A DNA stretch of 64,000 bases from Candidatus Omnitrophota bacterium (GCA_018826075.1 JAHKAJ010000024.1:69910-133909), one strand, 5' to 3'; counted from the first letter of the stretch, positions 4,096-60,654 are shown. Program-made: numbers and translations. Notes: generated by a model from the letters alone, not told the origin.

Positions 4096-5006
4096 ATGCT
4101 TCCTTTAAAGAAAATAGCCTGAACTTTTCCTTTGTGGCTCCGGCCTTGTTTATCTTCTCGATTTTTTATATCTACCCGTTTTTTTACAGCTTTATTCTAA
4201 GCCTGACTAACTACGATTTAATCGGTGATTTCAATTTTAAAAACTACTACGTGGGTTTTAGCAATTTTAGAGATGTATTTACCGATAAAGATTGGTGGAA
4301 GTCGATGTATAACGGCGGTTATATCACTTTCTGGGCTTTGACTTTTCAAAACATCCTGGCTTTTGCTTTAGCTTTAGCCGTAGATAAGGTAGTAAGGCTT
4401 AAAAAGTTTTACCGGGTAGTTTTTTTTATTTTACCGGTGCTTTCAGAAATAATTATCGGCCTTTTGATGAAGCAGCTTTTAATCGGCGAACCTACCGGAA
4501 GGAATGTCTTCAATAACCTGCTTAACAGCGCCGGTTTAGGCTTTATGGCTCAGGATTGGATTGGCGGTGACCGGGTCAGGATGATTACCGCTTTGGTCCA
4601 TTGTTGGAAAGGTTTTGGCTGGGCCTTCGTGATTTTATTTGCCGGATTGCAGACTATTCCCGAACAACTTTATGAAGCGGCTAAAATCGACGGCGCTAAT
4701 GCCTGGCAACAATTTCGCAAGATCACCATCCCCTTAGTCATGCCGGTCATTACCCTGGTAGTTGTTCTTACTATTCTGGGGACGATGCAGGCATTTGCTA
4801 TGATTCTAGCTTTAAATGCCGGCGCCGGCGGAGAAACTACGGTTCCGGTTATGATTATTTTTTCGCATCTTGGCGGCGCCAGCAAATTAGCCGGTTTAGC
4901 CTGCGCTGAAGGTTTGATCTTAGGAGCGATATTAGTGGCCGTTTCTTTCAGTATGTTTTTTGTTTCCAAAAAAGTCAGGGAGAAATACGGTGTATTACCA
5001 AGCTAA
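4092..5006 (+). CDS. sugar ABC transporter permease (MalF/UgpA-like)
   Basis: Multi-pass membrane protein carrying the EAA-like motif AAKIDGANAWQQFRKITIP. Confidence 0.8.
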   Translation: MNASFKENSLNFSFVAPALFIFSIFYIYPFFYSFILSLTNYDLIGDFNFKNYYVGFSNFRDVFTDKDWWKSMYNGGYITFWALTFQNILAFALALAVDKVVRLKKFYRVVFFILPVLSEIIIGLLMKQLLIGEPTGRNVFNNLLNSAGLGFMAQDWIGGDRVRMITALVHCWKGFGWAFVILFAGLQTIPEQLYEAAKIDGANAWQQFRKITIPLVMPVITLVVVLTILGTMQAFAMILALNAGAGGETTVPVMIIFSHLGGASKLAGLACAEGLILGAILVAVSFSMFFVSKKVREKYGVLPS

Positions 5007-5826
5007 GAAAATTATTACGGTTATACTTTTACATACCTTTTTGATCAGCGTAGCTCTTTCCTGTATTTTTCCTTTCTTTTGGATGGTCAATGTATCGTTT
5101 AAGACTCAAAGCGAATATGATGCCGATTCAGGCCTAAAGCTTGCCCAGTCGTTAAATTGGGATAATTACCACAAGGTGATCTTTGAAGGCGGTTTTTGGC
5201 GCTATATCGTCAACAGCGTGGTTTACACCTTTGCTACGGTCATTTTTATTGTTTTTATTTCTTCCCTGGCCGCGTTTGGCTTTTCGCGTTTGAATTTTCC
5301 CGGTAAAAATATTATTTTTTTCATGTTTTTAGCGGCAATGATGATACCGCTTCCGGCTGGTTTTGTCCCGATTTACGCCTTGCTTCAGCAACTGGGGTTA
5401 TTGAACCGGGCAGGATATATCTTTGCCATGACTAATATCGGCTTATCGCTTAGCATTTACCTTTTAAAAACTTTCTTTGACCAGCTGCCGCGGGATCTTG
5501 AAGATGCCGCGCGTATCGACGGCTGCAATAAGCTTCAGATCTGGTGGCATGTAGGTTTGCCGCTGGTTGCTCCGGCTTTAGGGGTAGTAGTTATTTTCAA
5601 TGCCTTGAATGTCTGGAACGAATTTGTTTTGGCTAAGCTTATATTTACCGATGAACAGTTTATGCCGCTTCAAGCCGGGCTGATGGAATTTACCGGAAAG
5701 ATGGTGACCCAGCACACTTTGATTATGACTGCTTTGACTATTGCAGCCCTGCCAATAATTATTTTGTATATAAAAATGCAAAAACAGTTTATTAAAGGGC
5801 TGACTGCCGGGGCAGTGGTGGGATGA
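4960..5826 (+). CDS. sugar ABC transporter permease (MalG/UgpE-like). The true start is probably the GTG near 4990, after an AGGGAG ribosome-binding site.
   Basis: Multi-pass membrane protein carrying the EAA motif DAARIDGCNKLQIWWHVGLP. Confidence 0.8.
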   Translation: MFPKKSGRNTVYYQAKKIITVILLHTFLISVALSCIFPFFWMVNVSFKTQSEYDADSGLKLAQSLNWDNYHKVIFEGGFWRYIVNSVVYTFATVIFIVFISSLAAFGFSRLNFPGKNIIFFMFLAAMMIPLPAGFVPIYALLQQLGLLNRAGYIFAMTNIGLSLSIYLLKTFFDQLPRDLEDAARIDGCNKLQIWWHVGLPLVAPALGVVVIFNALNVWNEFVLAKLIFTDEQFMPLQAGLMEFTGKMVTQHTLIMTALTIAALPIIILYIKMQKQFIKGLTAGAVVG

Positions 5827-31523: not shown

Positions 31524-31739
31524 ATGGCAAAAAAAATCAGTAAAAAAGGGAGGCCCAAAAAGGCCGTAAAATACACCAAAACCATCAATGTCCGCCTGAC
31601 CCATGACCAATGGGTTCAGATCCTTAATTGGGCCCAGCGGGCTAACCTGGAACCTTCAGTATATATCCGCAAGATAGTCCTGGACTTCCTTAATATCGAG
31701 CACGAGATCAATACCGGAAAATCTCTGGCTAAAAAGTAA
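31524..31739 (+). CDS. ribbon-helix-helix (CopG-like) DNA-binding protein with an N-terminal AT-hook-like KKGRPKK motif
   Basis: 71 aa. Basic N-terminus with a GRP core. A beta-strand (TINVRLT) followed by helices, consistent with an RHH fold. Stand-alone gene with its own promoter-like upstream region and a terminator. Confidence 0.45.
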   Translation: MAKKISKKGRPKKAVKYTKTINVRLTHDQWVQILNWAQRANLEPSVYIRKIVLDFLNIEHEINTGKSLAKK

Positions 31740-31966: not shown

Positions 31967-32050
31967 GGTTTACTTCAACCGTACTTCATCACCTACGAGG
32001 AGTCCGCTGACTCCTATCTTACGGCGGCCACCTCGTAGGTGTTACATTTT
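31967..32050. repeat. palindromic repeat element, copy 1 (novel ~75-85-bp family)
   Basis: TTTACTTCAACC-(9 nt)-CACCTACGAGG-AGTCCGCTG...ACGGCGG-CCACCTCGTAGGTG-TTACATTTTA. An 11-bp perfect inverted repeat flanks a ~30-nt sub-palindromic interior. Homologous to copies at 39265, 60546 and 59226. Confidence 0.6.
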
Positions 32051-32189
32051 AGGGGGTTATTTGACCCATATAGGCCATTTCTAGGCTTAAGAAGGCTTGG
32101 GGCTTAAGAATTAGGGCAAGAATGGCAATGATAGCGATGATTATAATCAGTTCAATCAGAGTGAATGTCCGGCAGCGTGTTTTCTTCAT
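32049..32189 (-). CDS. 46-aa prepilin-type N-terminal mini-ORF (MKKTRCRTFTLIELIIIIAIIAILALILKP...). Possible truncated pilin or pseudogene. Not in the ORF track.
   Basis: Hand translation of the minus strand. Classic type IV prepilin leader plus F(+1)TLIEL hydrophobic helix. ATG directly abuts the stop of the upstream pilin gene (TAG-ATG). Its stop codon lies at the edge of repeat copy 1. Confidence 0.4.
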   Translation of the reverse strand: MKKTRCRTFTLIELIIIIAIIAILALILKPQAFLSLEMAYMGQITP

Positions 32190-32828
32190 CTATTGTACGC
32201 AATCGATAATTTGTAATAGGGCATCTGGTTTCAAAGGGTCGCCTGAAAAATCATACGGCCCCCAGATATTACCGCTAGATAGGTTACCGTCATCTAACGC
32301 AAAGTCAATTTTTTTCAGGGATTCATAGGGAATTTGACCGGCATTATTCATTAAAGCAGTCATAGCGCCTGGCCAGCAAAAACTTCCATCAGGAAGAATC
32401 CAAGTAGTATACCCCCAATTATAGCCTTTAGTTGGGTACCAAGACACATAATTATTGTCCCAAGGGTTTTTAGCTGGCCATGTCTCTAAATAAGGGCCAT
32501 CCCATGTCGGGCCGTCAATACAGTTTGCACAGGTTTGGGTTCCACCATTTAAATTCCAGAGTTCATCCGGCCAACAGGTAGTTGCGGTTATCGGGGCCAC
32601 AAAACCAGGATCTTTACCCCAGCCACCGACTTTATTACAGGGAAATCTTCGGTTGTCGGCATAATAAGTTAAAGCAGCAGTTTTAATCGCTTTCATATCC
32701 CCTATTGCTTTAGTGATTTTTGCTTTCTCGATAGCTCTGAAAGCATTAGGTGCGATGATGGCGGCAAGGATAGCGATGATAGCGATGACAACGATTAGCT
32801 CGATTAAAGTGAATGATTTTTTCATCAC
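32190..32828 (-). CDS. type IV pilin-like / pseudopilin protein (prepilin-type N-terminal cleavage/methylation domain)
   Basis: MMKKSFTLIELIVVIAIIAILAAI, a prepilin leader with Glu at +5. Cys-containing C-terminal domain. Confidence 0.75.
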   Translation of the reverse strand: MMKKSFTLIELIVVIAIIAILAAIIAPNAFRAIEKAKITKAIGDMKAIKTAALTYYADNRRFPCNKVGGWGKDPGFVAPITATTCWPDELWNLNGGTQTCANCIDGPTWDGPYLETWPAKNPWDNNYVSWYPTKGYNWGYTTWILPDGSFCWPGAMTALMNNAGQIPYESLKKIDFALDDGNLSSGNIWGPYDFSGDPLKPDALLQIIDCVQ

Positions 32829-36766: not shown

Positions 36767-36849
36767 CGGTATGTCAACCGGCAACTCAGCCGCCCTAATA
36801 GCCCTTAAGGGTTTTAATCCGTAAGTTGGGGGAGCCTGTTTTTCGAAAG

Positions 36850-36945
36850 ATTTTGGACTTTTAACCCCCGGAACTATCTTAGGCCTGTTACAGCTTTGCG
36901 TCCCCGCCTTTCGACGGGTTTGCCCTTATCGGCAATTAAAGTATA
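36850..36945 (-). promoter_or_regulatory. c-di-GMP-I (GEMM) riboswitch aptamer
   Basis: Minus-strand RNA AAGGGCAAACC-CGUC-GAAA-GGCGG-GGACGCAAAGC-UGUAACAGG-CCUAAG... matches the GEMM-I consensus (AGGGCAAACC, P1b hairpin with GNRA tetraloop, GGACGCAAAGC, GGCCUAA) nearly base-for-base. Compare the Vibrio Vc2 aptamer. Confidence 0.7.
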
Positions 36946-39264: not shown

Positions 39265-39348
39265 TTTTACTTCAACCATGCTGCGCCACCTTCGAGGAGT
39301 CCGCTGGCCTCTATCCTACGGCGGACACCTCGAAGGTGTAGAGTTTTA
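39265..39348. repeat. palindromic repeat element, copy 2
   Basis: TTTTACTTCAACC...CACCTTCGAGG-AGTCCGCTGGCCTCTATCCTACGGCGGA-CACCTCGAAGGTG-TAGAGTTTTA. Both stem arms carry the compensatory A-to-T / T-to-A change relative to copies 1 and 3. Confidence 0.6.
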
Positions 39349-39352
39349 GAAT

Positions 39353-42300
39353 TTATTCTTTTTTTGGTTTCTTTTGTTCCTCGGATATTTTTTGGGCGAT
39401 TTCCTTAGGCACCGGAATATACTTTTTAAAGTGCATTGAACAACTGGCCCGGCCGCTGGAAAGTGACCGTAGATTAGTGACATGGCCGAACATCTCAGCC
39501 AAAGGAGCTTCAGCCAGGATCTGTTTCTGGCCGCCTTTAGTCTCCATGCCCAAAATTTTACCTCTTCGGGAACAGATATAACCGACAATGCTGCTGGTGT
39601 ATTCTTCGGGAGTGAGGATCTCTAAATCCATGCAAGGTTCAATAAGGGTTGGCTCGCACTTTAAAAAAGCTTCACGAAAACAGCCCAAAGCCGCAAGCTT
39701 AAAGGCAATCTCTGAAGAATCGACCTCATGATAGGAACCATCGATAAGGTTTATTTTAATATCCACTACTGGATAACCGGCATAAGCGCCTTTCTTCATG
39801 GCCTCAATAAGGCCCTTTTGAACTGCCGGAATAAAATTTTTAGGTATAGCCCCACCTTTAATGCTGTCAGTAAATTCAAATCCGGCTGCCGGCTGGTTAG
39901 GAGAAAGCTCAAAAACTACGTGGCCGTACTGACCTCGTCCTCCGCTTTGTTTAACATGCTTATATTCCTGAGTTGCTGAGCCGGAAATTGTCTCTTTATA
40001 GGCTACTTTGGGCTGACCCACCGTAGCCGAAACCTTAAATTCTTCTTTGAGACGCTCAACAATTATTTCCAAATGCAGTTCGCCCATTCCCGAAAGAATT
40101 GTCTCAAGAGTCTCTTCATCAGTGTGAGCGGTAAAGGTCGGGTCTTCTTCGGTAAGTTTAGCGATTCCTTTAGCCAACCGGTCCTGATCAGTGCGGCTTT
40201 CCGGTTTGATGCTTATCGAAACTACTGGATCGGAAAAAACTATTGATTCAAGCAGTATGGGGTTTTCTGAATTGCAAAGAGTATCTCCAGTTAAAGTAAA
40301 GTTCAACCCGACTATTGCTCCGATATCACCGGCAAACATAACGTCAACGTTTTCCCTCTGGTTGGCATGCATGCGGACAATCCTACCCACGCGTTCTTTT
40401 TTATTTTTAGTCGCGTTTAGAATATAACTACCGGCCTTTAAAAACCCCGAATAAACCCGTGCGTAAACCAACTTGCCTACGTGTTGATCAGCCTGAACCT
40501 TAAAAGCTAAGGCCGAAAAAGTTTCCTCATCCTGAGGCTTACGTTCTAATTTTTTTTCCGGGTCATCAGGGTCATTGCCGATCACTGCCGGTACTTGGGC
40601 CGGCGACGGCAAATAAACAGTAATCGCATCAAGCAAATCCTGGATACCTTTGTTTTTTAAAGCTGCTCCGCATAAAACCGGTATGATCTTATTTTCAACT
40701 GTCGCCTGATGCAGAGCTTTCTTAATCTCCTCGTTAGTAATTGTATCTTCTGACTGAAGATATTTTTCCATCAGTTGGTTGTCAAAAGAAGCAACTTTTT
40801 CTATTAAGCTGTGGCGGTATTGTTTAGCCAACTCCTTGTCGTTTTCGGGTATTTCTTCCAGCTTGATATCTTTGCCGAAGGAATTCTCATCATAAAATTT
40901 AGCCTTCATCTCAATAAGGTCGATCACACCCTTAAACTCAGTTTCTTTGCCGACCGGTATTTGTAAAGCTACGGCATTAGCCCCGAGAGTAGTGACTATT
41001 TCCTGAAAAACTTTAAAAAAATCAGCACCCAGTCTGTCCATTTTGTTAATAAAGGCTATTTTGGGGACTTTATATTTAATCGATTGGCGCCAGACAGTCT
41101 CGGTTTGTGATTCAACTCCGCCTACCGCACAAAATACTGCGACTGCTCCGTCAAGAACCCTCAAAGATCGTTCTACCTCAGCGGTAAAATCAACGTGGCC
41201 AGGAGTATCAATGATCGTGATCTGGCAATCAGCCCAATTACAGGTAGTTGCTGCTGAAGTTATGGTAATGCCTCTTTCCTGTTCTTGTTTCATCCAATCC
41301 ATCTGGGCAGCTCCGTCATGGACTTCGCCGATTTTATGAGAACGGCCGGTATAAAAAAGAATCCTTTCAGTGAGCGTAGTCTTTCCAGCGTCAATATGGG
41401 CCATAATGCCGATATTGCGGATTTTATCCAAAGTTATTTTTCTTTCCGGAGGCGGTTCTTCTTTTTTCTTAACCATCTCCGTCTTGACTTCCGGTTCGGG
41501 TTTAGCTATCTCTTCCTCTGCCGGTAGCTGGATCGGGGCCGGATTTTCAGCTAATGGTTCTTCAGCTGGAACTTCCAAAGGCGGACTTTCTTCAGGCAAC
41601 TCGGGAATTGCCGGTTTTTCTTCCGGGTTTTGCGGTTCAGGCGTTAAAGTAACGGTACGCTCAAGACCCCGCAACTGGTTAAGAATACGGATCCTTTCCT
41701 CATCAATTTTTTTTGTTTCTTCCTCTTTGAGCGTCAACTCCTTTTTTTTGATTTCCAGTTCGTCTCGCAAATTTTCACATTGATTTTCCAACAAAGAATA
41801 ATCTTCTTTGGAAATCCAGCCGCTTTGACGCTCTTGTTCCTTAAGTTTGGTCAAATCGGCCAGATATTGGTTTTTTTCTTTAGCTAGATCCTGCATCTTT
41901 TGGCCCTGCTCTTTGGCTTTAGTCTCTAATAAGATTATTTTCTCATTTAGCTGGCTGAGGTTTTCCTCTTTTATCCCGATCACTTCTTCGGTTTGCTTAA
42001 GGTCCTTCTTAAGCTGGACATTATTGGAAAATTCTTTTTCCAACTGTTTTTCGGTTTCAATGAATTTAAACTTTAAAGTTTCATAAGGGCCTTTGCCTTT
42101 TTTCAAAATATCCTGTTGGCTATTCAGCCATTTTTTATTTCGTTGCAGTTCATCAGTCAACTCTTTGACCTTTTGGCTGCTGGCCTGATATTTTTGCTGT
42201 AAAGCCAAGTTATCAGTCTTAGCCTTTTCCAAAGAAATGTTTTCATTTCTAACTTCTAACATTTCCCGTTTTAAAATTTTAACATTTTCATGAAGGGTGA

Positions 42301-42439
42301 GGATTTTTTGAGCCTCGGGGCTGGACTTGGAAAGGAATCCCCGGCTAAGCAATTTTTTCGGGTCTAAAGAATCGTCGGTATTTACCGCGTAAAGAACCAG
42401 GGCTACCGCTACTCCGATAAAAAGAAAAATTACCACCAT
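39353..42439 (-). CDS. elongation factor G homolog fused in-frame to an N-terminal TM anchor, ~250-aa coiled coil and Pro/Glu-rich linker
   Basis: Residues ~340-1028 are a full EF-G ([14 protein letters not shown], domain [11 protein letters not shown]). Residues 1-330 are a hydrophobic N-terminus, Lys/Glu/Gln-rich heptad sequence and a PEPE linker, with no stop codon in the frame. An internal Met ~20 aa before the G-domain could be an alternative start. Confidence 0.7.
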
Positions 42440-49356: not shown

Positions 49357-49439
49357 TGCACCCTGATTTACTTAGCCCTAAAAAATAAATCTTTCAAGTC
49401 ATTCCGCGTAACTTAAAAAAATTCTCTAACCTTTGATCA

Positions 49440-49585
49440 GGTATTCTGACTTCCCCGCTCTCTTAGCGGCCTTCCCATCCGGCTGGACAGTGGCTAAAAG
49501 GCTAAAAGAGTTCCCCGAATTTCGGGGCAGGGTTACAGCTGCGGGACAGCTACCGATTCGCACGGTATTCCCTAAACCAAAGAAT
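49440..49585 (-). promoter_or_regulatory. cobalamin (AdoCbl) riboswitch
   Basis: Minus-strand RNA contains UUAGGGAAUACCGUGCGAAUCGGUAGCUGUCCCGCAGCUGUAA (compare consensus AGGGAA..GGUG.AAAUCC..GCUG.CCCGCAAC.GUAA). It also has the B12 box AGCCACUG and a downstream GGGAAGGC. Confidence 0.7.
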
Positions 49586-49589
49586 AGTC

Positions 49590-50096
49590 TTAATTTGACA
49601 AAAGAGCAAGTTTAGCCTTGCGGCTTGGGACCTTTTTGGATACAAATTCATAGGTACCCAAAAGTACCAGCATATAAAATACATTTGAAACTAATGACGT
49701 CCTGAAAAAAGGTATGGCTAAAGTGTAACATTGGATTAAACCGTTTATTGTCCGGGGATACCAGCCACCCAGCCAAACACCGAGATTAGTGACAATAAAA
49801 AAGATGACCGAAGAAATCGCAGCATAAGAAAGATTGGTCACCAGGCTTTGATTTCGTTTTAATCGTTTACCCAACAAAGTTATCAGAAAAACACTGCCCC
49901 AGGTAAATAAAACTACTCCGTGTAACCCGATTATCAAATCGGAGATGACATAGAGTACTATCGGCAACCAAAGCGAATATTTTTTATTCAGGTAAGCACC
50001 CGAAAACAAAGCGATGGCTATGATTGGGCTAAAATTAGCCAAATGCGGGGTTAACCGGGAAGCCAGGCCAAGAATAAACAACGCGATTATTAACAT
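49590..50096 (-). CDS. hypothetical polytopic membrane protein (168 aa)
   Basis: About five TM helices. No confident family assignment. Confidence 0.45.
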   Translation of the reverse strand: MLIIALFILGLASRLTPHLANFSPIIAIALFSGAYLNKKYSLWLPIVLYVISDLIIGLHGVVLFTWGSVFLITLLGKRLKRNQSLVTNLSYAAISSVIFFIVTNLGVWLGGWYPRTINGLIQCYTLAIPFFRTSLVSNVFYMLVLLGTYEFVSKKVPSRKAKLALLSN

Positions 50097-57641: not shown

Positions 57642-59159
57642 TTATTGATCCCTCCCCGAAGCACGGCGCAGTTCTTGTAGGAATTCTGGATTAACTTGCC
57701 AGCCTAAATGTTCAGCTTTCTGTACATCTTCCCATGCTTGAGTATAGTCGCCTTTGTGATAATAGGCAACAGCACGATTAAAGTAAGCATGGGGTACGTT
57801 AGGATTAAGATTGATAGCACGATTATATTCGACAATAGCCTGTGTAAAATCGCCTTTGCCAGCATAGATAAAGCCAAGGTTATGGTGTGGTTCGGCTAAG
57901 TTTTGATTAATATTTAGAGCCTGGTTATAGTCAGAAATCGCCCGAGTAAATTCGCGCTTGCTACAATAAGCGTTACCGCGGTTGTTGTAGGCAAAGGTAT
58001 CATAGGGATTAATTTTTAAAACTTGGTTGTAGTCTGAAATCGCTCGGTCAAGTTGGTCTTGCCTGTGATATGCAAGGCCGCGGTTGTTGTAGGCGGCGGC
58101 TAAGTTTGGATTAATATTTAGAGCTTGGTTATAGTCGAGAATCGCCTGGGTTAAGTTACCTTTACTGTAATAGACAAAGCCAAGGTTATTATAAATGTAG
58201 GCAGTAGCAGAATAACTATCGGTTAAGGCTAGATAAGAATACTCCACGTTTAGCAGTTCTTTTTGGCTCATTTGGCCAATTGTCTTTTCTCCTGTTTCCA
58301 ATTGTTTTCTGATTTCTTTTACTCTATCAAAGTTGAGCCGGTGTTCAGGCTTTAAGGCAATATAACTTCCCCCGATATCGTAATAAAATTCAATGTTAAC
58401 TATTTCAAATATTTGGTTAGTGAAATCAATGAAAAGAATTTGGCGGCCATCAAAAGATATATAGTTAAAAATGTGACTCGGCGATAAAGCGGTCATTGCA
58501 TCAAACCCCAGCATAGTTAATAGAATACTTCCTAACTGAGTAATGGCACTACATGCAAACTTGCTTTTCTTCTCTTCCTCTTTTTCTCTGCGAGATAAAG
58601 AGCTTGATTCGATAAGATCAATAATATCTTCTTTGCATAAGCCGTTAACTAATGATACAAGTAAAGGATGGATATTAGGGTAACTGAGTTGTCTTTCTTC
58701 ATCGATAAAACTGCCTATTTCAGCAACAAAGTTTTTTAGGCTGATAAGATTAGTTTTATCTTTTTGGGCTTGAATTTTTAATTGAGGGAAATTCATCTTA
58801 GTTAAAAACGGGATGAGTCGTTTCTCTATATCAAGGCACGCATATTCAGGATAGCCTAAATTTTCTAGAAGTTTGTGGACATTTTCAGTATCTATTTCTT
58901 CAAAAGATGAATTGATGTAGCTTATTTGAGACGAGTGCGTTTCTCTTGTTTCATTTCTTTGTATAACACCATTAATACTTTCAATGTCTTCCACATAATA
59001 TCTAAGTGGAACGCCGTGGAAATCTATCTTGATATATTTATCTGTTGTTTCCATTATATCAGCATCAATGGTTTTACCATTTTTTAGCTTGATAGTTTCA
59101 GGATAACAAGGATAAAAAATTAAGGCTGTAATAATAAATTGTAAAAATATTTTTTTCAC
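57642..59159 (-). CDS. secreted TPR-repeat protein (paralog of 56840-57592)
   Basis: Signal peptide. Shared N-terminal module IKLKNGKTIDADIMETTDKYIKI...YYVEDIESING. C-terminal array of about six TPRs (AYNNRG.AY... repeats). Confidence 0.6.
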   Translation of the reverse strand: MKKIFLQFIITALIFYPCYPETIKLKNGKTIDADIMETTDKYIKIDFHGVPLRYYVEDIESINGVIQRNETRETHSSQISYINSSFEEIDTENVHKLLENLGYPEYACLDIEKRLIPFLTKMNFPQLKIQAQKDKTNLISLKNFVAEIGSFIDEERQLSYPNIHPLLVSLVNGLCKEDIIDLIESSSLSRREKEEEKKSKFACSAITQLGSILLTMLGFDAMTALSPSHIFNYISFDGRQILFIDFTNQIFEIVNIEFYYDIGGSYIALKPEHRLNFDRVKEIRKQLETGEKTIGQMSQKELLNVEYSYLALTDSYSATAYIYNNLGFVYYSKGNLTQAILDYNQALNINPNLAAAYNNRGLAYHRQDQLDRAISDYNQVLKINPYDTFAYNNRGNAYCSKREFTRAISDYNQALNINQNLAEPHHNLGFIYAGKGDFTQAIVEYNRAINLNPNVPHAYFNRAVAYYHKGDYTQAWEDVQKAEHLGWQVNPEFLQELRRASGRDQ

Positions 59160-59225
59160 AGTATTATTATGATTTTATTATTTTTACATAACAACCAATA
59201 ATCCACTTCAGATGTCATAATTCAA

Positions 59226-59300
59226 TTTTACTTCCCGGACCCCTAGAAAATGTCCTTTGTTTTATCCTGCAGCAGACGCTTCGATAGTGTAGAGTTTTAC
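59226..59300. repeat. palindromic repeat element, copy 4 (degenerate)
   Basis: The 5' end TTTTACTTCC and 3' half TATCCTGCAGCAGACGCTTCGATAGTGTAGAGTTTTA align with copies 1-3, but the 5' stem arm is lost. It overlaps the stop codon of the gene at 59297-59824. Confidence 0.4.
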
Positions 59301-59824
59301 TTCTGTTTCCATGTGCCTGGGGAGACTTCTAACCACCAGCCGCTGGAGGCGCGTTCGTAGTCGTCCTGAAAGAATACTTTTTGAGTTTCCGAAACGTCTA
59401 CTCCGTTTTTCTCGGCGGTGTATTGATAAATAATCTGACGGTCGGCATTCTCGCTGTTAACTAAACTTTCAATACCAGCCGCTGCTTTCGAACGGACCTC
59501 AAGCAATGCTTTGCGGTTTTCGCCGATATAACCCTGATTAAAATTTTCTTCTATCTGTCCGGCCCGGGCCTTTCTCCGTTCGATAGCCGCTTCTAAATCA
59601 TCTACGCTGGCAGCATAAGCCTGGCTGAAATTAAAAAGAAAGTTTATTTTTTTCTCATTATTGCCGTAGATCTGGTCATTGATTGATTCAGCGTCTTTAG
59701 CCACATGCTGATAAACATCGATCCGCATATTTATATCGACCTTGATCGGTTCTTTGGTCTCGACATTAAGCTTGGCACACCCCAAAACCGCAAACATCAA
59801 CAAAACCACTCCGAATTTTTTCAT
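59297..59824 (-). CDS. YdbL-like (DUF1318) periplasmic lipoprotein
   Basis: Lipobox LGCAK. GYIGENRKALLEV resembles the conserved G(l)iGE...G motif of YdbL. Confidence 0.4.
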   Translation of the reverse strand: MKKFGVVLLMFAVLGCAKLNVETKEPIKVDINMRIDVYQHVAKDAESINDQIYGNNEKKINFLFNFSQAYAASVDDLEAAIERRKARAGQIEENFNQGYIGENRKALLEVRSKAAAGIESLVNSENADRQIIYQYTAEKNGVDVSETQKVFFQDDYERASSGWWLEVSPGTWKQK

Positions 59825-60654
59825 TGGGTACCTCCTTGGTTTAAAACCCTTAGTTTATCTTCTATGTTTTTTATCCTGGCCTCAGGGTCAGGATGTGATG
59901 ACAAGTAAAAAGGAACCTGCCCGCGATTGTTATTTTCAGCTTCAAGCTTTTTAAAAAGAGTTAAAGCGGCTCGCGGCTGGTAGCCGGCAGAATTAACATA
60001 CTGAAAGGCTAAAGAGTCGGCTTCCAGCTCGTCTTTTCGTGAATAACCCAACGATATTAAACCGTATAACTGATCGACCATTTGTTTGGCCTGGGTTTGT
60101 TCCGGAGTCCTTAGTAAGGTAGCAGCTAAGACACTAACGCTTAAACTTGCCCCCAGCTGTTTTAAGCTGTGCCGGGCAGAAACGTGGCCGATCTCATGAG
60201 CCAGGACAAAAGCTAATTCCTGCTGGCTGACTTTATCCAGTAGGCCCCGGTAAACAAAAATATGGCCGCCGGGAATAGCTAAAGCATTGACTTCCGGTGC
60301 ATCAATAATATAAAAATGGTAAGTAAGGTTATTACGGTGGCTTACTGCAGCTACTTTATTCCCAATCGCCGCAATTACTGTATTCTTTTCAGGATCACTA
60401 TTGATCTTATTCTCATCAATGAACTGCCGAGCCATGGCATCACCCCAGGAAACCTCCCCCTTTTCATCAAAAATATACCATTCCTTTTTACCGCTTACCG
60501 GATTATAAACCGAAACACAACCCGATAATAGAACTAAAAAAACTATTACTCCAACCGCGCTGCGCCACCTACGAGGAGTCCCGCCTTCGGCGGGCCACCT
60601 CGTAGGTGTAGAATCTTTACTTGCCGTAAAATTGCATTTGCTTTTTTTACTCAT
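59821..60654 (-). CDS. M48 family zinc metallopeptidase lipoprotein. The first ~25 codons are encoded by repeat copy 3, so the annotated start is doubtful.
   Basis: HExxH motif LAHEIGHVSARH. Lipoprotein signal VIVFLVLLSGC is preceded by an unusually long basic N-extension. Confidence 0.7.
   Translation of the reverse strand: MSKKSKCNFTASKDSTPTRWPAEGGTPRRWRSAVGVIVFLVLLSGCVSVYNPVSGKKEWYIFDEKGEVSWGDAMARQFIDENKINSDPEKNTVIAAIGNKVAAVSHRNNLTYHFYIIDAPEVNALAIPGGHIFVYRGLLDKVSQQELAFVLAHEIGHVSARHSLKQLGASLSVSVLAATLLRTPEQTQAKQMVDQLYGLISLGYSRKDELEADSLAFQYVNSAGYQPRAALTLFKKLEAENNNRGQVPFYLSSHPDPEARIKNIEDKLRVLNQGGTQ
60546..60620. repeat. palindromic repeat element, copy 3
   Basis: TTACTCCAACC...CACCTACGAGG-AGTCCCGCCTTCGGCGGGC-CACCTCGTAGGTG-TAGAATCTTTAC. 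The interior is replaced by a compact GC hairpin with UUCG loop. Confidence 0.6.

Follow-up and report, generated by a model that had tools for sequence, protein, structure and literature searches.

The window, by which we mean the whole 64-kb stretch of Candidatus Omnitrophota DNA that was analyzed here, encodes an M48 metalloprotease on its minus strand, and a copy of a palindromic repeat (copy 3) lies within the 5' coding end of this gene. Both the ORF and the repeat are present as the original prediction had described them, while the interval that it assigned to the repeat (60546-60654) has to be narrowed: the element does lie within this interval, but the latter runs on to the ATG, and the element itself covers at most 60546-60620 (Table 1). 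The Peptidase_M48 domain (PF01435, amino acids 89-266) and the HEIGH motif of the product are intact, and its N-terminus reads MSKKSKCNFTASKDSTPTRWPAEGGTPRRWRSAVGVIVFLVLLSGC. A protein search returned 928 homologs, and the identical protein, which NCBI lists for Candidatus Omnitrophica as "M48 metalloprotease", occurs on 9 contigs that derive from at least 3 samples (JGI and NCBI assemblies). Upstream of the M48 gene lies an SNase gene, whose TGA stop codon (60651-60653, minus strand) shares the sequence ATGA with the M48 start, and the gene order SNase-M48-DUF1318 is kept at ortholog loci.

Table 1. Positions of the M48 gene, the features of its signal peptide, and the repeat copies in the window.
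Feature	Position	Strand	Details
M48 metalloprotease gene, host of the element	59821..60654	minus	277 aa; Pfam PF01435
ATG start of the M48 gene	60652..60654	minus	sole in-frame canonical start before the lipobox
Copy 3, maximum extent	60546..60620	minus	75 nt, 25 codons; S12-V36/I37 of the M48 precursor
Copy 3, hairpin core CACCTACGAGGTG-GCCCGCCGAAGGCGGG-ACTCCTCGTAGGTG	60566..60608	minus	43 nt
Copy 3, 3' tail GCGCAGCGCGGTTGGAG	60549..60565	minus	from an alignment of 12 Omnitrophota copies and metagenome matches
Lipobox LLSGC, codons 42-46	60517..60531	minus	motif kept in orthologs P0002-P0014
Copy 1, intergenic	31969..32052 (hairpin 31990-32041)	minus	just downstream of a truncated pilin-like ORF
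Copy 2, intergenic	39266..39349 (hairpin 39287-39338)	minus	between the EF-G and response-regulator/GGDEF genes
Copy 4, decayed	59225..59299 (about)	minus	both ends recognizable, hairpin lost, z = +1.2

A palindromic repeat within a predicted lipoprotein signal peptide

The similarity of copies 1, 2, and 4 to copy 3 extends from (G/C)TAAA to AGTAA, while the conserved core, consisting of the hairpin and its tail, comprises 60 nt (60549-60608). With 70% GC, the hairpin core of copy 3 stands out from the window (41% GC), and its short-loop variant is also found in L054, where two pairs have changed in a compensatory manner. The tail of copy 3 is kept among Omnitrophota copies, for which the consensus is GCGAAGCRCGGTTGRAG, and codes for RSAVG(V), the beginning of the hydrophobic core of the signal peptide. 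On the gene strand, copy 3 can be read without a stop in a single frame, and this is the frame used by M48; of the other two, one holds TAA/TAG and the other a TAA in the tail, where TGA or TAA interrupts both.

The predicted lipidation site of the M48 precursor is Cys46. VIVFLV-LL-S-G-C matches the lipobox pattern ([LVI][ASTVI][GAS]C), and the lipobox L-S-G-C is preceded by the core AVGVIVFLVLL and by an N-region with a net charge of about +6. According to PROSITE rule PS51257, the lipoprotein cysteine is located at positions 15-35. Cys46 lies beyond this range, which confirms the earlier remark that such a basic N-region in front of a lipobox is atypical. When the element is deleted in silico, the cysteine moves to position 21 (deletion of the 75 nt at 60546-60620, resulting in the 21-aa signal peptide MSKKSKCNFTAIVFLVLLSGC) or to position 26 (deletion of the 60-nt core, signal peptide of 26 aa). 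Both lengths are multiples of 3, and both deletions leave a signal peptide of canonical length and form.

The comparison with orthologs is in agreement with this. In 11 orthologs (P0004-P0014, 45-66% identity), the element is absent and the signal peptides, which include a lipobox, are 18-24 aa long. The closest orthologs, P0002 and P0003 (70-73% identity), have a long N-terminus as well, which stems from another, AT-rich palindromic repeat spanning the start codon; the same extension without a repeat, which would have spoken against the original prediction, was found in none of the orthologs. In P0003 (L047, 2967-3096), the repeat consists of AAAC[TC]CTAAAT-type units across the start codon and is translated as ...LGFKFCVLDLFRVLGLGFRI..., and TTG codons that lie in frame within this repeat may be where translation really starts. 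Among close relatives, no genome with an empty M48 site was found. Because P0002 and P0003 carry a different repeat at the same place, the 5' end of the M48 gene appears, as judged from these alignments, to be a recurrent landing place for palindromic repeats.

Reading the codons along the M48 ORF revealed no ATG, GTG, or TTG in frame between the element and Cys46, and ATG 60654 is the sole canonical start in front of this cysteine, as the original prediction had noted for the stretch up to the hydrophobic core. This ATG is located 33 nt upstream of the element, and its surroundings are mostly unpaired in the predicted fold. Due to this distance and its overlap with the SNase stop codon, it looks native rather than brought by the element. 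Thus, from the earlier proposal that the element gave the gene both a start and an N-terminal extension, the extension can be retained (about 20-25 residues that are absent in orthologs), but not the start codon.

It could be argued instead that the element belongs to the 5'-UTR, that M48 starts downstream at a noncanonical codon, and that the long ORF is a chance extension. Copies 1, 2, and 4 are indeed located directly after the stop codon of the upstream gene and copy 3 about 30 nt past that of SNase; the TTG codons within the repeat of P0003 offer alternative starts there; and it has been cautioned that most N-terminal REPs may be extragenic, i.e., annotation errors (Di Nocera et al., PMC3733652). 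However, besides the lack of a canonical start between the element and Cys46, the only near-cognate codon is ATA (60544-60546), which would give MVFLVLLSGC without a charged N-region and lies 2 nt from the nearest GGAG. Furthermore, the element is open in exactly the frame of the gene while the other two frames carry stops, and the ATGA overlap is typical of a coupled start. Since no usable codon exists, we regard a downstream, noncanonical start as highly improbable.

A second possibility is that the insertion crippled the gene, with the 46-aa pre-sequence failing in export or lipidation and the protease being mislocalized or becoming a pseudogene. A crippled export signal is suggested by the position of Cys46 beyond the usual range for lipoproteins, and, in addition, a hairpin of about -35 kcal/mol lies 46 nt into the coding region. 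On the other hand, neither the M48 domain nor the HEIGH motif is impaired, the identical protein occurs on 9 contigs from several samples, RRWRS puts positive charge right in front of a hydrophobic core of 13 residues with a perfect lipobox, and related copies are tolerated inside the essential genes for UvrB, PurD, and LeuRS (see below). We therefore consider a loss of function unlikely.

Further copies of the repeat in the window

Together with copy 3, the window contains 3 intact copies, all in one orientation, which were matched by the Omnitrophota profile with nhmmer E-values of 1e-22, 5e-23, and 3e-19. In each copy, the outer stem (CACCTNCGAGG / CCTCGNAGGTG) measures 11 bp and encloses an inner stem-loop that varies, with the tail (GCGMAGCNNGGTTGRAG) following on the 3' side. 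The GC content of the hairpins (62-70%) exceeds that of the window (41%). Fold energies of the intact copies range from -34 to -40 kcal/mol, corresponding to z-scores between -3.9 and -4.7 for both strands, and, based on 100 shuffles, the exact hairpin is expected 0 times. In copy 2, a compensatory T:A is found at a pair that is A:T in copies 1 and 3. The start of copy 4 coincides exactly with the native TAA stop codon of the DUF1318 gene, the orthologs of which also end in ...WKQK or ...WREK followed by the stop. The sequence GAAGTAAAA is present at both ends of copy 4 and may represent a target duplication or a site preference. No Y1 transposase gene was found within the 64-kb window.

At the gathering score, Rfam gave no family at the site of copy 3 in the window, and the best permissive match was CRISPR-DR58, with 17 bits compared to a cutoff of 38 (E = 0.8). 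Several other kinds of element were considered and rejected. Unlike integron attC sites, the copies lack R'/R'' boxes and are separated by 7-20 kb, each lying between housekeeping genes; distances to start codons are inconsistent and copies occur in both orientations within ORFs, unlike in a riboregulator that sequesters the Shine-Dalgarno sequence; and no T-tract follows the hairpin, with 0 terminator-like sites in the scan, unlike in an intrinsic terminator.

The surroundings of the intergenic copies, as well as other parts of the window, include features that deserve mention in their own right. Upstream of copy 1, the short ORF 32053-32190 (minus strand) repeats the N_methyl/pilin helix of the adjacent 212-aa pseudopilin (32763-32815); this pilin-like ORF stops at copy 1 and is possibly a pilin gene that was cut short by the insertion. 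On the other strand beside copy 1, a 71-aa ORF (31524-31739, plus strand) matches the mobilization protein NikA (Pfam PF21983, E = 4e-6) and may be the remnant of a mobile element. The EF-G gene next to copy 2 (39353-42439, minus strand) is called as a 1028-aa ORF, in which GTP_EFTU is matched only from amino acid 339 onwards; the first 338 aa look like an N-terminal TM helix, after which comes a long coiled coil with many E, K, and P residues. The ORF could be a genuine fusion that anchors EF-G in the membrane, or else two genes have been called as a single one. Furthermore, a c-di-GMP-I riboswitch match with a large insertion (36777-36934, minus strand; 158 nt compared to 87 model positions) lies upstream of an MscS-like gene region, and a cobalamin riboswitch was identified with 79 bits (49419-49595, minus strand). 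Finally, a TPR gene (57642-59159, minus strand) contains four tandem 102-nt repeats (57762-58196) with 63-72% identity, which are ordinary duplications of the TPR unit.

The wider repeat family and candidate Y1 transposases

Beyond the window, the arms of the family, CACCTNCGAGGTG and ACTCCTCGNAGGTG, recur in MAGs of Omnitrophota and Patescibacteria (CPR), both of which are ultra-small groundwater bacteria. A scan for the hairpin arms with one genome per species resulted in 46 matches on 43 DNA stretches, and a few more copies, some of them on contigs from the same sites, came from scanning metagenomes for the tailed Omnitrophota type. Since the viral collection gave 0 matches to the hairpin, there is no evidence of a phage vector. 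A HMMER scan with amino acids 9-40 of the M48 protein returned 7 weak matches, all of them long repetitive proteins without the element peptide, and a search for translated copies via a peptide concatemer gave no candidates. In the open-access literature, the exact arm sequences matched unrelated primers only, and no account of this family turned up in searches on palindromic repeats of Patescibacteria and Omnitrophota.

Among the matches, several MAGs are titled "uncultured Gammaproteobacteria bacterium" (L008, L009, L012, L013, L015, L022-L024, L027, L033, L034, L036, L039, L040, L043, and L045). The UvrB of one such TPA MAG is 85-89% identical to Candidatus Daviesbacteria proteins, and, on the basis of this protein, the MAGs appear to be mislabelled, Daviesbacteria-like CPR. 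An initial assignment of the family to six or more phyla was cut back accordingly, and with this relabelling to CPR, the secure host range consists of Patescibacteria and Omnitrophota. Outside this range, single matches carry the labels Planctomycetia, Clostridia, and Mycobacteriales, as deposited.

While the arms are nearly invariant across the family, the inner stem-loop varies freely without losing its pairing. For the 37-nt class, pairing is seen in 97% of cells and 4 pairs have changed on both sides, a score that is reached by 0 of 500 shuffles, suggesting that the hairpin is maintained. Of 51 hairpin copies, 27 are in frame and stop-free within long ORFs, in both orientations and all frames; the remaining copies are intergenic, and none was seen to split a gene. 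The peptides encoded by the in-ORF copies (TSEV...TPRRW, HLRGV...HLGGG, SPPRS...PPRRW) represent repeat-derived inserts that are contained in protein alignments and phylogenies of these lineages. On average, 5.0 of 6 frames are open in the in-ORF copies compared to 4.2 of 6 in the intergenic ones (Mann-Whitney p = 0.001). Moreover, none of the six frames of the consensus arms (CACCTCC joined to GAGGTG) contains a stop codon, which may allow copies to colonize signal peptides and the coding regions of essential genes such as those for UvrB, PurD, and LeuRS. Omnitrophota copies are co-oriented with the neighboring genes in about 8 of 10 cases.

The host ORFs include those of UvrB, PurD, and LeuRS, for which a comparison with solved structures was possible. 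PurD from an Omnitrophota MAG has exactly 15 extra amino acids, equal to a 45-nt hairpin, whereas UvrB has about 21 extra amino acids between two conserved blocks and LeuRS about 7. Orthologs of this UvrB at 86-89% identity lack the insert, and between the filled and the empty site, about 9 nt are replaced without target duplication; the junctions of the insertion are thus not clean. Since the extra residues of PurD match the hairpin in length and close orthologs of UvrB are devoid of the additional stretch, the family members are, as far as alignments tell, true insertions into genes.

In the UvrB linker of Daviesbacteria (L040, L058, L059; alignment columns 417-448), three different inserts occur by lineage, namely a three-arm hairpin, a two-arm hairpin (in a more distant ortholog), and an unrelated repeat translated as SLSVIPANAGIQ...SRLRGNDD. 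The linker is thus a putative insertion hot spot. As for target duplications elsewhere, AGTAA(A)-like matches are present at both ends of the copies in the window, and in L052, GTAATACC is found on both sides. The AGTAA-like end matches could be target duplications, in which case the insert would be 71 nt long, which is not a multiple of 3.

The search for an enzyme that could move the family led to a 217-aa gene of another MAG (L032, 4469-5122), which matches Pfam Y1_Tnp. On either side of it, no more than about 25 nt away, stands GTTCCACCTC[G/C]GAGGTGGAAC, a sequence that includes the 13-mer of the family; these flanking copies (4441-4461 and 5148-5168; also written GTTCCACCTC[G/C]GAGGTGGAACATGGTTATC) are direct repeats, not inverted ones. 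Among solved structures, E. coli TnpA-REP (PDB 4ER8, E = 2.9e-5) is the best match to the protein, with ISDra2 TnpA ranking lower. A homologous Y1 gene is found in L008, on a contig with family hairpins, where its flanks are 46-nt inverted repeats with AACACCTTAGAGGTGTT, i.e., the same stem with another loop. A third homolog, from Daviesbacteria (L062, 7030-7707, as well as L061, L063, and L064), is a RAYT-like Y1 gene located between uvrB and uvrA; it is flanked by a different palindrome, AAGGTCSGACCTT (AAGGTC[C/G]GACCTT), which represents another cognate repeat with the same 6-1-6 layout. The Y1 transposases comprise 217-225 aa and score below the NCBIfam cutoff for REP_Tyr_transpos.

Most inner loops of family copies are C(GAA)G triloops. 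This triloop is very stable in DNA, and its prevalence therefore fits a single-stranded DNA intermediate. Based on the flanking repeats and the relationship to TnpA-REP, the Y1_Tnp protein of L032 is a likely candidate for the mobilizing enzyme of the family, and we infer that a Y1 enzyme moves the family in the source genome.

Interpretation and relation to known repeat systems

We consider it probable that copy 3 is a REP/REPIN-like doublet that was spread by a RAYT-like Y1 transposase and is now translated, at a near-neutral cost, within a cleavable signal peptide. Such an element would be non-autonomous, with two inverted, near-palindromic arms of 13-14 nt around a variable stem-loop, and would most likely have spread as an ssDNA hairpin via a RAYT-like Y1 (HUH) transposase. 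It would have landed, or survived only, in the sole stop-free frame between MSKKSK... and the hydrophobic core. Coupled to the nuclease gene upstream, translation would begin at ATG 60654, the native start, and read through the hairpin, adding 20-25 hydrophilic, net-basic residues and bringing the N-region to its net charge of about +6. Since RRWRS adjoins the hydrophobic core and places positive charge beside it, the signal should still work, and signal peptidase II would be expected to remove the entire pre-sequence at Cys46. With the pre-sequence wholly removed, the mature protease would be unchanged and the insertion close to neutral; the peptide itself is presumably made, exported, and cleaved.

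It has to be weighed against this whether the hairpin was co-opted in cis, either as a structure by which the translation or the stability of the M48 mRNA is tuned or through a Tat-like TPRRWRS that changes the export route. In favor of such a role, the hairpin has stayed perfect even though translation would not require any structure, the family arms are similar to anti-Shine-Dalgarno (CACCTCC) and Shine-Dalgarno (GGAGGTG) motifs, most Omnitrophota copies point in the same direction as neighboring genes, and an RR pair directly precedes the hydrophobic core. However, an insertion that occurred recently would account for the intact stem just as well, copy 3 has TAGGTGG rather than GGAGGTG, and members of the wider family are found in either orientation and in every frame of their host genes, with neither an Rfam family nor a terminator-like tail. 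Moreover, the Tat consensus is S/T-R-R-x-F-L-K, and RRWRS lacks its hydrophobic positions. Co-option is thus very unlikely in our estimation. The earlier suggestion that the element is a structured RNA, in the 5'-UTR or translated, which affects expression or secretion of the protease, is not supported either, because the absence of an Rfam match, the absence of a downstream start, the mixed orientations and frames, and the link to Y1 transposases all argue for tolerated selfish DNA instead of a regulator. The element reads as RPE-like selfish DNA and not as a riboswitch-like 5' element or a new regulatory device.

For the annotation, this means that the M48 gene model is to be kept, since the N-terminal repeat is not a start-site error. 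It further implies that the stretch of a signal peptide from the charged N-terminus to the hydrophobic core can absorb 20-25 foreign residues. Translated palindromic repeats are thereby extended to Omnitrophota and CPR, with a candidate link to Y1 transposases, and both the mechanism of mobilization and the cost of in-frame hairpins become testable. More tentatively, and with less confidence than we place in the reading of copy 3, the copies might form an undescribed, untagged REPIN-like family common to CPR and Omnitrophota and moved by a RAYT-like Y1 clade of about 220 aa. If true, this would be an RPE-like phenomenon over a far wider phylogeny, with the M48 5' end and the UvrB linker as hot spots.

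With regard to known systems, palindrome-associated elements derived from IS200/IS605 have distinct left- and right-end hairpins and insert beside a specific 4-5 nt target. Dependence on a hairpin, a Y1 HUH transposase acting on ssDNA, and a lack of target duplication would be shared with the explanation favored here, but a target of this type is not evident in the flanks of family copies. PARCELs resemble the element in their dyad-symmetric coding, with both strands translatable, in their frequent occurrence in membrane-targeted proteins or lipoproteins, and in a patchy distribution across phyla. However, they are tandem 25-residue amphipathic domains in proteins of unknown function, whereas the element is a single hairpin in a conserved enzyme.

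The likeness to REP/REPIN-RAYT systems extends to several levels. These likewise consist of short, GC-rich, imperfect palindromes in several copies (REPs measure 20-40 bp and are repeated many times per genome, compared to 3 intact copies and 1 decayed copy of the element in 64 kb), and REPINs are inverted doublets that form one long hairpin, as is the case here, with arms that pair over 11 bp. Each arm, CACCT-NCG-AGGTG, is itself a near-palindrome, and because the arms are small palindromes like those flanking Y1 genes while the whole hairpin is an inverted doublet, the architecture is that of a REPIN. Alternating arms, as known from REP clusters (BIME-like), are also found, with 3-5 arms in L022, L038, and L040, and just as RAYT genes are accompanied by their cognate repeats, the Y1_Tnp gene of L032 is flanked by the family repeat, albeit in another MAG and not in the window. 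REPs are mostly located just downstream of genes, and some intragenic REPs and REP dimers code for 20-30 aa, including in uvrA and uvrB (Di Nocera et al. 2013, PMC3733652); the copies described here behave likewise. In contrast, the GTAG/CGTC tag of REPs is not conserved at the foot of the hairpin in the flanks of 46 copies: a plus-strand GTAG is present on the 3' side of the hairpin in window copies 2-4, but absent from copy 1 and related copies. The hosts also differ, being Omnitrophota and Patescibacteria here, and the transposases are longer and divergent.

Finally, the RPEs of Rickettsia (Ogata et al. 2000) are translated palindromes that are fused into proteins (PMC10969869). As selfish palindromes that are translated in frame in unrelated housekeeping genes of bacteria with small genomes, they behave like the element. 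RPEs are about 100-150 bp long, restricted to Rickettsia, and have no identified transposase, whereas the element measures 43-75 nt, has another sequence, and occurs in two phyla. By sequence, it is therefore not a member of an RPE family, in view of its size and of its matches, which come from Omnitrophota and Patescibacteria MAGs and a few with other labels. The event is nevertheless of a known kind, that of translated palindromes such as RPEs and intragenic REPs, and its setting here is a signal peptide with no alternative start.
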